Shown: positions 26,878-29,069 of the stretch, one piece after another
Layout of the letters: each line of letters opens with the position of its first letter
Position numbering within the stretch: the first letter of the stretch is position 1
Source of the DNA: Escherichia coli
GTDB lineage: Bacteria; Pseudomonadota; Gammaproteobacteria; Enterobacterales; Enterobacteriaceae
Assembly (NCBI RefSeq): GCF_048403405.1
Contig: NZ_CP183129.1
DNA: 64,000 bases
Reading direction: 5' to 3' (one strand)
Translations under genes and position numbers: made by a program
Notes under the pieces: model-generated
Told to the model about the DNA's origin: nothing
Databases searched by the model: none
Seen by the model: only the letters and a program-made list of their open reading frames with translations

Positions 26878-28029
26878 ATGTCACTTGTCACCGATCTACC
26901 CGCCATTTTCGATCAGTTCTCTGAAGCTCGCCAGAAAGGCTTTCTCACCGTCATGGATCTCAAGGAGCGCGGCATTCCGCTGGTTGGCACCTACTGCACC
27001 TTTATGCCGCAAGAGATCCCGATGGCAGCCGGTGCAGTTGTGGTTTCGCTCTGTTCCACCTCTGATGAAACCATTGAAGAAGCCGAGAAAGATCTGCCGC
27101 GCAACCTCTGCCCGCTGATTAAAAGCAGCTACGGCTTCGGCAAAACCGATAAATGCCCCTACTTCTACTTTTCTGATCTGGTGGTCGGTGAAACCACCTG
27201 CGACGGCAAAAAGAAAATGTATGAATACATGGCGGAGTTTAAGCCTGTTCATGTGATGCAGTTACCGAACAGCGTTAAGGACGATGCCTCGCGTGCATTG
27301 TGGAAAGCCGAGATGCTGCGCTTGCAAAAAACGGTAGAAGAACGTTTTGGGCACGAAATTAGCGAAGATGCTCTGCGCGATGCCATTGCGCTGAAAAACC
27401 GCGAACGTCGCGCACTGGCTAATTTTTATCATCTTGGGCAGTTAAATCCTCCGGCGCTTAGCGGCAGCGACATTCTGAAAGTGGTTTACGGCGCAACCTT
27501 CCGGTTCGATAAAGAGGCGTTGATCAATGAACTGGATGCAATGACCGCCCGCGTTCGTCAGCAGTGGGAAGAAGGCCAGCGACTGGACCCGCGTCCGCGC
27601 ATTTTAATCACCGGCTGCCCGATTGGCGGCGCAGCAGAAAAAGTGGTGCGCGCGATTGAAGAGAATGGCGGCTGGGTTGTCGGTTATGAAAACTGCACCG
27701 GGGCGAAAGCGACCGAGCAATGCGTGGCAGAAACGGGCGATGTCTACGACGCGCTGGCGGATAAATATCTGGCGATTGGCTGCTCCTGTGTTTCGCCGAA
27801 CGATCAGCGCCTGCAAATGCTCAGCCAGATGGTTGAAGAATATCAGGTCGATGGCGTAGTTGATGTGATTTTGCAGGCGTGCCATACCTACGCGGTGGAA
27901 TCGCTGGCGATTAAACGTCATGTGCGTCATCAGCACAACATTCCTTATATCGCTATTGAAACAGACTACTCCACCTCAGATATCGGGCAGCTCAGCACCC
28001 GTGTCGCGGCCTTTATTGAGATGCTGTAA
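26878..28029 (+). CDS. yjiM: 2-hydroxyglutaryl-CoA dehydratase D-component (HgdB/BcrC)-like protein, function unknown
   Basis: 383 aa from ATG 26878 (MSLVTDLPAIF...) with GGGGAAGGAAAA RBS; several conserved Cys. Confidence 0.85.
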   Translation: MSLVTDLPAIFDQFSEARQKGFLTVMDLKERGIPLVGTYCTFMPQEIPMAAGAVVVSLCSTSDETIEEAEKDLPRNLCPLIKSSYGFGKTDKCPYFYFSDLVVGETTCDGKKKMYEYMAEFKPVHVMQLPNSVKDDASRALWKAEMLRLQKTVEERFGHEISEDALRDAIALKNRERRALANFYHLGQLNPPALSGSDILKVVYGATFRFDKEALINELDAMTARVRQQWEEGQRLDPRPRILITGCPIGGAAEKVVRAIEENGGWVVGYENCTGAKATEQCVAETGDVYDALADKYLAIGCSCVSPNDQRLQMLSQMVEEYQVDGVVDVILQACHTYAVESLAIKRHVRHQHNIPYIAIETDYSTSDIGQLSTRVAAFIEML

Positions 28030-28038
28030 GGAGTGGCA

Positions 28039-28806
28039 GTGGCATATTCGATTGGCATTGATTCCGGCTCAACCGCCACCAAAGGGATCTTACTGGCAGA
28101 CGGCGTGATTACGCGCCGTTTCCTCGTTCCAACACCCTTTCGCCCGGCAACAGCAATTACTGAAGCCTGGGAAACTCTGCGCGAAGGGTTAGAGACAACG
28201 CCGTTTCTGACGCTCACCGGCTACGGACGGCAACTGGTGGATTTTGCCGATAAACAGGTGACGGAAATCTCCTGTCACGGGCTGGGCGCACGGTTTCTTG
28301 CGCCAGCAACGCGCGCAGTAATCGACATCGGTGGTCAGGACAGCAAAGTGATTCAGCTTGATGATGACGGTAACCTGTGCGATTTCCTGATGAATGACAA
28401 ATGCGCGGCGGGCACCGGGCGTTTCCTGGAGGTGATCTCGCGCACGCTTGGCACCAGCGTCGAGCAACTCGACAGCATTACCGAAAATGTCACGCCGCAC
28501 GCGATCACGAGTATGTGTACGGTGTTTGCCGAATCAGAAGTGATCAGCCTGCGCTCAGCGGCCGTCGCGCCAGAAGCGATTCTCGCTGGAGTGATTAACG
28601 CGATGGCGCGGCGGAGTGCCAATTTCATTGCTCGTCTCTCCTGTGAAGCGCCGATTCTGTTTACTGGTGGCGTTAGTCATTGCCAGACGTTTGCCCGGAT
28701 GTTGGAAACTCACCTGGGTATGCCGGTAAATACCCATCCTGATGCGCAATTTGCTGGCGCAATTGGCGCGGCGGTAATTGGTCAACGAGTGAGGACACGC
28801 CGATGA
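28039..28806 (+). CDS. yjiL: BadF/BadG/BcrA/BcrD/HgdC-type ATPase (putative activase of a CoA-substrate-specific enzyme)
   Basis: About 255 aa; acetate/sugar-kinase fold motifs (IGIDSGSTATKG, DIGGQDSK, DKCAAGTGRF); start taken as GTG 28039 after an AAGGAG RBS (GTG 28033 is an alternative). Confidence 0.85.
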   Translation: MAYSIGIDSGSTATKGILLADGVITRRFLVPTPFRPATAITEAWETLREGLETTPFLTLTGYGRQLVDFADKQVTEISCHGLGARFLAPATRAVIDIGGQDSKVIQLDDDGNLCDFLMNDKCAAGTGRFLEVISRTLGTSVEQLDSITENVTPHAITSMCTVFAESEVISLRSAAVAPEAILAGVINAMARRSANFIARLSCEAPILFTGGVSHCQTFARMLETHLGMPVNTHPDAQFAGAIGAAVIGQRVRTRR

Positions 28807-29069
28807 AAGAGTTTTTATTTTTATTTCACTCCACGGTCGGCGTGATACAAACCCGCAAGGCGTTGCAGGCAGCGGGCATGACTTTTCGCGTCAGCGATAT
28901 TCCCCGTGATTTACGCGGCGGCTGCGGGTTATGCATTTGGCTGACCTGTCCGCCCGGCGAGGAAATACAATGGGTGATCCCTGGGCAGACCGAAGCGATA
29001 TATTGCCAGCAGGGCAGCGACTGGCAGTGCGTGGTGCATTACGATTCAGAAGCGTCAACCAGGCAATAA
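28803..29069 (+). CDS. Hypothetical small Cys-rich protein translationally coupled to yjiL
   Basis: 88-aa ORF whose ATG overlaps the yjiL stop (ATGA at 28803-28806); contains GGCGLC, CPPG and CQQGSDWQC motifs. Family assignment not made. Confidence 0.5.
   Translation: MKEFLFLFHSTVGVIQTRKALQAAGMTFRVSDIPRDLRGGCGLCIWLTCPPGEEIQWVIPGQTEAIYCQQGSDWQCVVHYDSEASTRQ

Follow-up and report, generated by a model that had tools for sequence, protein, structure and literature searches.

What does a single relative of the 2-hydroxyacyl-CoA dehydratases do in Escherichia coli, next to an ATP-dependent electron-injecting partner and a very small third protein? The question is raised by the genes yjiM, yjiL and ytiA in a 64,000 nt stretch of an E. 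coli chromosome (NZ_CP183129.1, assembly GCF_048403405.1; "the window" below), where a first-pass annotation, made from the sequence alone, had proposed an orphan 2-hydroxyacyl-coenzyme A (CoA) dehydratase with its activase and a small Cys-rich partner. Our analysis indicates that the three products are, very probably, a double-cubane cluster protein (DCCP), its reductase (DCCP-R) and a DUF3343 carrier. The system is already known and annotated, and the selenium lead that we describe here is a testable addition to it and not a discovery. The ~2.7 kb around the operon are 100% identical to several human isolates and are found in 5,386 of 5,426 complete E. coli genomes. The open reading frame (ORF) coordinates agree with the RefSeq annotation of identical strains, and those first given for all three ORFs were exact to the base (Table 1).

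YjiM matches Pfam HGD-D with E=7e-122, and profile searches confirm the superfamily originally assigned to the pair, an HGD-D protein with a BcrAD/HgdC-type electron-injecting ATPase. Within that superfamily YjiM scores 531 bits against the NCBIfam model NF040772 (double-cubane-cluster-containing anaerobic reductase; cutoff 350), and its closest solved relative is the DCCP of Carboxydothermus hydrogenoformans (DCCP-Ch; PDB 6ENO/7YYL), which it matches with E=7.8e-75 over residues 26–383. The next PDB matches, benzoyl-CoA reductase and dehydratase subunits, lie at 1e-19 to 1e-13, with a dehydratase beta subunit at 2e-13. The reading as an orphan 2-hydroxyacyl-CoA dehydratase did not hold up, as YjiM passes the DCCP equivalog model but fails those of the dehydratase subunits HadC (95 bits, cutoff 700) and HadB (19 bits, cutoff 750). 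Assignment to the class I benzoyl-CoA reductase subunits was also rejected (BzdN 80 bits, cutoff 454; BcrC 59 bits, cutoff 421), and the BzdQ model fails at this locus with 159 bits against a cutoff of 380.

The seven-Cys motif of DCCPs consists of six cluster ligands and one cysteine close to the cluster. Its cysteines are all kept in YjiM (C40, C59, C78, C93, C108, C273, C302, C304 and C335), and C40, C59, C78, C108, C273, C302+C304 and C335 align with C76, C95, C114, C144, C309, C341+C343 and C374 of DCCP-Ch. The aligned motif cysteines are invariant or at least 90% conserved among 27 diverse homologs, and the spacing is off the printed motif by a few residues (X18 and not X19, X164 and not X166–170). 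The locus has a single HGD-D paralog and one BcrAD_BadFG reductase gene, the arrangement of homodimer-type DCCPs. By homology, then, YjiM is predicted to be a homodimer-type double-cubane [8Fe-9S] cluster protein. A review has in fact named it as a potential double-cubane cluster enzyme that stands for the class II DCCPs, and has paired it with YjiL as its reductase (PMC7317905). The first-pass annotation had remarked that a single dehydratase-like subunit is unlike the two-subunit dehydratases; the single subunit is real but the novelty is not, since homodimeric DCCPs are a described class in which YjiM is named, so that this oddity was already explained. Leaving the substrate unassigned, as was also done there, agrees with the literature on DCCPs.

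YjiL matches Pfam BcrAD_BadFG (PF01869) at 3.6e-75 and TIGR00241 at 361 bits (cutoff 125), and its PDB matches are 4EHT (HadI, 3.5e-52), 1HUX (HgdC, 8.5e-52) and 7YYL_E (DCCP-R, 5e-46). In DCCP-R the [4Fe-4S] ligands are C115 and C152 (PMC9351452). The DKCAAGTGRF motif previously noted in YjiL is present, as NDKCAAGTGRF, and its C122 (DKCAAGTG) together with C160 (CTVFAESE) aligns with the same-motif cysteines of HadI and HgdC and corresponds to the two DCCP-R ligands. The HadI and HgdC cysteines we take to be the cluster ligands there as well. Homology thus identifies YjiL as the probable cognate ATPase of YjiM, a predicted homodimer bridged by one [4Fe-4S] cluster.

The third product, YtiA, matches Pfam PF11823 (Se_S_carrier, formerly DUF3343) at 4.3e-13. 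RefSeq names the ORF "DUF3343 domain-containing protein" or "putative Se/S carrier protein", and in K-12 the gene is called ytiA. It is matched in 5,385 of 5,426 complete E. coli genomes and has 54–99% identical relatives in Escherichia, Citrobacter, Klebsiella, Raoultella, Kosakonia, Atlantibacter and others. Ribosome footprinting in enterohaemorrhagic E. coli (EHEC) EDL933 recorded it as the 267 bp gene X070, with a promoter assigned to yjiM, and the X070 sequence in the supplement of that work differs from YtiA of the window at one position, S82A. The small ORF is therefore real: conserved, annotated and footprinted in EHEC. Because, in addition, the Fe-S cysteines of YjiL and YjiM are conserved, the core of the first-pass annotation stands.

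YtiA was also described as Cys-rich. It does have five cysteines in 88 residues (41, 44, 49, 68 and 76), but the label is overstated, for only C41 is invariant; C44 is kept in enterics only and the others vary. Among 22 homologs encoded beside YjiM-like genes, in gammaproteobacterial and mostly Firmicute loci, the positions that are at least 90% conserved are one Phe, one Pro and Cys41-Gly42, and a conserved Cys has been described for the DUF3343 family (PMC5322559). The AlphaFold model of YtiA (predicted local distance difference test score 86) superimposes in Foldseek on DUF3343 models from Clostridia, Fusobacteria and others with template modeling (TM) scores of 0.75–0.95 at 15–30% identity; against solved structures it gives generic alpha+beta sandwich matches only. 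A profile search of PDB sequences with YtiA found nothing real (best E=0.37), and word-indexed protein searches with YtiA and YjiM returned only enterobacterial relatives. YtiA, a small alpha/beta protein whose single invariant cysteine is C41, is a putative carrier; the family name Se/S carrier was itself derived from comparative genomics only (PMC5322559). The C-terminal half of long YedF proteins was considered as a further DUF3343 domain and rejected, since its hidden Markov model scores are at noise level and Pfam calls TusA+DsrE.

The 85-aa YtiA of most E. coli, K-12 included, departs from the window version past nt 211 of the ORF; of the 5,385 genomes, 644 match at least 80% of the window ORF, and most of the rest, like K-12, match nt 1–211 only. 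The departure coincides with an island at 29070–31500, between ytiA and yjiK (a gene with an SdiA-regulated domain), that has 31–39% GC against ~55% in the operon. This island is missing from K-12, and its break lies inside the 3′ end of ytiA, giving the 88-aa and 85-aa variants. On it lies the gene for a pentapeptide-repeat protein of 688 aa, which has a series of 8-residue ASDSxxKQ-like repeats at its C terminus.

How far does the unit extend? The translational coupling proposed in the first-pass annotation is borne out. The ATG of yjiM is at 26878 and its TAA at 28027–28029; the GTG start of yjiL at 28039 follows 9 nt past that stop and 5 nt past a GGAG (28030–28033), an alternative in-frame GTG at 28033 being less likely as the start. 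The yjiL TGA (28804–28806) shares an ATGA (28803–28806) with the ytiA ATG at 28803, which has an AGGA 7 nt upstream. For comparison, one genome per species was scanned with a profile of diverse YjiM homologs, and from the first 600 pattern matches we kept the 80 loci with the best scores, whose identity to YjiM runs from 96% down to 49%. This sample is neither random nor phylogenetically independent (it has many metagenome-assembled genomes, or MAGs, of Lachnospiraceae) and the statistics ignore phylogeny, so that the p-values below overstate independence; ORFs were called mechanically, and many loci are metagenome bins with truncated contigs. A reductase gene is present in 50 of these 80 YjiM-like loci.

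Eight of the loci are gammaproteobacterial (two from Escherichia and one each from Superficieibacter, Cedecea, a MAG, Hafnia, Morganella and Aeromonas), and all eight have the DCCP, reductase and DUF3343 genes in this order on one strand. The reductase stop and DUF3343 start overlap or abut in every one (ATGA, GTGA, TAATG, TGATG, TGAATG or an 11-nt overlap), and in seven the DCCP stop is followed by GGAG or GGAA and then a GTG start, with TAA-GGGGG...ATG in Morganella. The flanking genes vary. It had been suggested that yjiN, the DUF445 membrane protein gene immediately upstream in the window, might belong to the same unit, but a yjiN-like gene adjoins the trio in only four of the eight and in none of the 72 other loci, and the Hafnia trio lies between rluA and djlA. 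Since the flanks differ and a yjiN-like gene is beside only half of the gammaproteobacterial trios, the unit is one of three genes, not four.

The yjiML genes are among the operons directly activated by FNR, on the evidence of a peak in chromatin immunoprecipitation sequencing and FNR-dependent anaerobic induction (PMC3688515), and a later transcriptome paper also handles them as members of the FNR regulon. Our own scan is weak, so the case for FNR control is based on that literature: the FNR consensus (TTGAT-N4-ATCAA, three mismatches or fewer) gave 374 matches in the window against ~279 expected, and 5′ of yjiM it found 3-mismatch sites only. Aligned across six genera, the upstream region has a conserved -10-like TATAAT/AATAAT at ~26828–26833 and a conserved GATCAA half-site at 26799–26804, within a 3-mismatch FNR-like match at 26791–26804; the latter would be centred near -42/-43 if transcription is assumed to start ~7 nt past the -10-like hexamer. 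A promoter scan gave no sigma-70-like site 5′ of yjiM at its threshold, and a terminator scan 3′ of ytiA found none. Directly before the yjiM ATG, at 26852–26872, is a palindrome or hairpin, CUCCCGUG-N2-ACGGGGAAGG, that is invariant in Escherichia, Superficieibacter, Cedecea and a MAG except for two loop bases. In Hafnia it reads CCCGG...CCGGG, a two-sided change that preserves pairing, and it is absent from Morganella and Aeromonas. Either a protein operator or an RNA structure by the ribosome-binding site could underlie it; an Rfam search of the upstream region returned noise only and no family. A self-contained, anaerobically (FNR-) induced three-gene operon is the best explanation of yjiM-yjiL-ytiA.

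Is the third gene a peculiarity of enteric bacteria? The genome scan rules this out, as it finds DUF3343 genes beside DCCP genes elsewhere. DUF3343 was detected with an iteratively built profile that may miss divergent members, so absences are soft; with it, the gene was found in 12 of the 72 YjiM-like loci outside the gammaproteobacteria, and in seven of these it is 81 bp or less from the DCCP or reductase gene. The association recurs in Clostridia, and here the order is shuffled such that every possible order occurs: DCCP, DUF3343, reductase in L035, L061 and L078; DUF3343, DCCP in L059 and L076; DUF3343, reductase, DCCP in L083; and DCCP, reductase, DUF3343 in L094. Over the whole sample, 15 of 21 DUF3343 matches lie within 500 bp of DCCP or reductase genes, a zone that makes up 9.6% of the flanking sequence (binomial p=1.6e-11), and outside the gammaproteobacteria the figure is 7 of 13 (p=7e-5). 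In L035, L061 and L078 it is a longer DCCP paralog (419–453 aa), beside the YjiM-like copy, that directly precedes DUF3343 and reductase, and DUF3343 thus pairs with more than one DCCP subtype.

What else accompanies DUF3343 hints at selenium. All neighbouring ORFs were clustered and scored against NCBIfam, which identified, among the 72 loci outside the gammaproteobacteria, a lyase of the EF2568/SclA family in 11 (ten at 412–497 bits on TIGR01977, cutoff 377, and one that reaches 693 bits on the narrow SclA model with its cutoff of 525), YedF in nine (TIGR03527), SelD in four (TIGR00476; all YedF and SelD matches above cutoff), and YqeC and a selenium-dependent xanthine dehydrogenase (Se-XDH) in two each. 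Two further lyase candidates proved on individual scoring to be ordinary NifS and were dropped from the counts. A lyase and/or YedF gene is present in 10 of the 12 DUF3343-positive loci vs 3 of the 60 DUF3343-negative ones (Fisher p=3e-8). Several of the sets are contiguous: lyase, YedF, DUF3343 and DCCP in L076, and lyase, DUF3343, reductase and DCCP in L083. In an Enterococcus sp. (L031, 539–16442) the order is DCCP, reductase and Se-XDH and, two genes further, MocA, lyase, SelD, YedF, DUF3343 and YqeC. Corrinoid/MtaA-like/RamA-like clusters, proposed in a preprint to recycle methyl-selenides, are found in eight further loci.

The Enterococcus locus places DCCP and reductase inside a Se-XDH/purine catabolism cluster that also has YgeY, YgeW and a xanthine permease, and L029 has a subset of such a cluster (a permease-family gene, Se-XDH, MocA, SelD, YedF and YqeC) around its DCCP and reductase genes. 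A different arrangement is seen at L014:6001–13152, where a YjiM-like DCCP gene (46% identical product) has no adjacent reductase gene and where an ABC ATPase, a protein of 86 aa without a Pfam match, an ArsP-type permease and a MerB-like gene come next, resembling Haft's "SAO" selenoprotein locus. YjiM-like stretches also occur inside long ORFs or proteins of ~715–870 aa, some with two matches (L090:5300–7447, L091:7121–9316, P0242, P0264 and P0270), which suggests fused or tandem DCCP architectures.

The association of DCCPs with selenium is already in the literature, although provisional there: of 970 DCCPs, 955 come from genomes that contain SelD (Haft preprint), DCCP is "provisionally linked to selenium metabolism" in the words of the mlp preprint, and a STRING table for Slackia links an activase and HGD subunit with DUF3343, without comment in the text. 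Added here are the recognition that a DUF3343 gene recurs in YjiM-like systems as their third, physically adjacent member, and its near-constant company, outside the gammaproteobacteria, of selenocysteine-lyase-family, YedF and SelD genes. Our full-text literature search found no paper that mentions DUF3343 together with DCCPs.

How might the three proteins work together? From the solved C. hydrogenoformans system, YjiL would accept an electron from a low-potential donor and, by ATP hydrolysis, push it into the double-cubane cluster of YjiM, where a hard-to-reduce substrate would be reduced. From the gene neighbourhoods, the most likely task of YtiA would be to carry the substrate, or to accept the product, on C41 as a covalent adduct (Cys-S-Se(-) or Cys-S-S(-)), with sulfur the less likely cargo. 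The system may then mobilise selenium, for example by reducing carrier-bound Se(0) or an organoselenium compound so that selenide is set free for SelD. An ATP-boosted reductant would make sense here, as the Se(0)/HSe- couple is strongly negative. Taken as a whole, this explanation, an operon with an ATP-driven reductase and a YtiA carrier acting in selenium mobilisation, seems to us evenly balanced between right and wrong; some selenium-connected role, by itself, we put slightly short of even, and the particular selenium chemistry just outlined is decidedly unlikely to be correct in its details. A sharper version, in which YjiM-YjiL-YtiA is the missing low-potential step of selenium assimilation, an ATP-driven release of selenide from YtiA Cys41 for SelD, or else YtiA loads a selenium bridge into the cluster, is tentative and on balance doubtful; its selenium would come from selenocysteine lyase, Se(0) or methylated selenides.

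Several observations weigh against selenium mobilisation. DUF3343 was not found within 8 kb in 60 of the 80 YjiM-like loci, nor a selenium-linked neighbour in 56 of the 72 loci outside the gammaproteobacteria, and the lineages that represent 50%-identity clusters (Pyramidobacter, Methanocorpusculum, Syntrophomonas and others) have no DUF3343 neighbour. No selenocysteine (TGA) variants of DUF3343 were found in the 80 loci. At the E. coli locus ytiA itself is the sole hint of selenium, and the DUF3343 family, which lacks a selenium-specific subfamily, is found in organisms without SelD as well (PMC5322559). It is not obvious that an ATP-boosted electron would be needed to reduce a perselenide or selenotrisulfide, and our literature search found no functional study of E. 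coli YjiM, YjiL or YtiA.

Some of these observations also bear on the alternative that survives best, though it too is unlikely, namely that the substrate is free of selenium (a CoA ester, or a small molecule that may be inorganic or organic), that YtiA is a generic sulfur carrier or redox helper, and that the Firmicute neighbourhoods reflect shared anaerobic lifestyle or regulation. Besides the fact that most YjiM-like loci lack a nearby selenium gene and that DUF3343 is not specific to selenium, it has in its favor that the characterised DCCP reduces acetylene, hydrazine and azide (PMC7317905, PMC9351452) and that other YjiM-like loci sit beside genes for ferredoxin, nitroreductase, an energy-coupling factor (ECF) transporter or corrinoid methyltransferase. 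It does not readily account for the lyase, YedF and SelD being seen in 15%, 12% and 6% of the non-gammaproteobacterial loci, when we estimate a chance of well under 1% for each within 8 kb because each usually has about one copy per genome, nor for their tight clustering with DUF3343.

An improbable but distinct alternative reverses the direction of supply: YtiA and the selenium-trafficking neighbours would serve YjiM by delivering its bridging chalcogenide, possibly selenide ([4Fe-4S]-Se-[4Fe-4S]), and the substrate would be unrelated to selenium. The neighbourhood data agree equally well with a DCCP that needs Se and with one that supplies it, and DUF3343 directly adjoins the DCCP gene in several loci. 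Given the nearly exceptionless co-occurrence of DCCPs and SelD, a selenium-bridged cluster is among the formal possibilities listed in the Haft preprint. The [8Fe-9S] cluster of the solved DCCP, however, has a sulfide bridge (PMC7317905, PMC9351452). Three quarters of the YjiM-like loci are without DUF3343, and nothing in the YjiM sequence marks a selenium-binding site. The solved DCCP was, we presume, made recombinantly without a dedicated carrier, which also speaks against this kind of supply. Last and least likely comes the classical reading, an orphan 2-hydroxyacyl-CoA dehydratase in which one activation by YjiL would let the single subunit dehydrate a 2-hydroxyacyl-CoA catalytically. This reading we consider very improbable in spite of the common superfamily, the slightly closer match of YjiL to HadI/HgdC (~180 bits) than to DCCP-R (161 bits) and its PGAP label "putative 2-hydroxyacyl-CoA dehydratase activator", given the model scores and PDB matches of YjiM above, its seven-Cys motif in place of the three-Cys motif of dehydratase subunits, and annotated surroundings (50 kb) with no second HGD-D, CoA-transferase or 2-hydroxyacid dehydrogenase gene.

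Comparison with known systems is informative in understanding what is shared and what is particular to E. coli. The nearest is the DCCP/DCCP-R pair of C. hydrogenoformans (CHY_0487/0488), which has the same catalytic family and Cys motif and an adjacent BcrAD_BadFG reductase gene with two cluster cysteines; the architecture of two homodimers and the electron injection are inferred for E. coli from this likeness. Unlike DCCP-Ch, YjiM is 38 residues shorter (383 vs 421 aa), and it has been called class II because it is without the N-terminal extension and channel-closing helices (PMC7317905). The E. coli operon also adds a translationally coupled DUF3343 gene. The 2-hydroxyacyl-CoA dehydratases (HgdAB/HgdC, HadBC/HadI) share the HGD-D fold and a homologous ATP-dependent [4Fe-4S] activator (~180 bits to 4EHT and 1HUX), but in them two HGD-D paralogs form a heterodimer, a three-Cys motif in each paralog binds a [4Fe-4S] cluster, and the substrates are CoA esters (PMC7317905), and their activator injects a single electron that serves many turnovers (Haft preprint). 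YjiM differs from these dehydratases in having one paralog and a seven-Cys motif and in failing their equivalog models.

Both components belong to the same superfamily as those of the class I benzoyl-CoA reductases (Bcr/Bzd/Mbd; YjiM–BzdN 2.8e-19, YjiM–MbdN 1.1e-17, YjiL–MbdQ 6e-50), which likewise couple ATP to stoichiometric electron transfer; the title of a 2025 paper reports [8Fe-9S] clusters in the class I benzoyl-CoA reductase group. These enzymes have four subunits and use aromatic CoA esters, whereas the E. coli locus encodes two of the four subunit types and YjiM remains at 59–80 bits where the reductase models require 421–454. The Firmicute selenium-trafficking sets (EF2568/SclA lyase, YedF, DUF3343, SelD, and the clusters of selenium-dependent molybdenum hydroxylases) contain a YtiA homolog with the same invariant Cys-Gly, and in 16 of the 72 sampled loci such sets hold a YjiM-like DCCP that is 52–61% identical to YjiM. 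Unlike them, the E. coli locus keeps the DCCP, reductase and DUF3343 genes only. We take E. coli selD, yedEF and yqeBC-xdhD to be located elsewhere on the chromosome. YtiA is, finally, like the TusA/DsrE-type sulfur relay carriers in being a small protein with one conserved Cys presumed to hold a persulfide-like adduct.

The physiological role of DCCPs was called unknown in a 2020 review (PMC7317905) and in a 2022 structural paper (PMC9351452), and yet these proteins attain reduction potentials otherwise tied to nitrogenase. The route from mobilised selenium to the selenide used by SelD is likewise still unsettled in bacteria. If the three proteins did perform the missing selenide-releasing step, this would be the first physiological function for DCCPs, and in a genetically tractable organism. 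The E. coli version is the minimal one, three genes controlled by FNR, and so makes the selenium hypothesis accessible to standard genetics.

Table 1. Features of the yjiM-yjiL-ytiA operon (positions in the window).
Feature	Position	Strand	Basis
yjiN-yjiM intergenic region, promoter and 5′ leader of the operon	26763..26877	+	literature, six-genus alignment
yjiM, class II DCCP, catalytic component, 383 aa	26878..28029	+	Pfam, NCBIfam, PDB homology
yjiM-yjiL junction with Shine-Dalgarno GGAG	28030..28038	+	sequence: TAA-GGAG-N5-GTG
yjiL, ATP-dependent reductase of DCCP (DCCP-R, "archerase"), 255 aa	28039..28806	+	Pfam, TIGR00241, PDB homology
ytiA, DUF3343 / Se_S_carrier small protein, 88 aa	28803..29069	+	Pfam PF11823, annotation, footprints

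The "yjiL-mdtM gene cluster" (24209–28806 of the window) has been cited as an accessory uptake route for proline-rich peptides, and a review lists a transporter "MdtM/YjiL"; beyond this, no other phenotype tied to the yjiM-yjiL locus was found in the literature. The window has other features of note away from the operon. A complete hpa (4-hydroxyphenylacetate catabolism) cluster at 2936–14056 lies between tsr and btsT, and is presumably absent from K-12. On the minus strand at 17897–20437, between yjiA and yjiS, is a penicillin G acylase gene, in the position that we believe is taken in K-12 by the mrr-hsd-mcr restriction cluster. A 5.2-kb inverse autotransporter gene, iatD, occupies 34004–39244 between yjiJ and kptA, which are adjacent in K-12.

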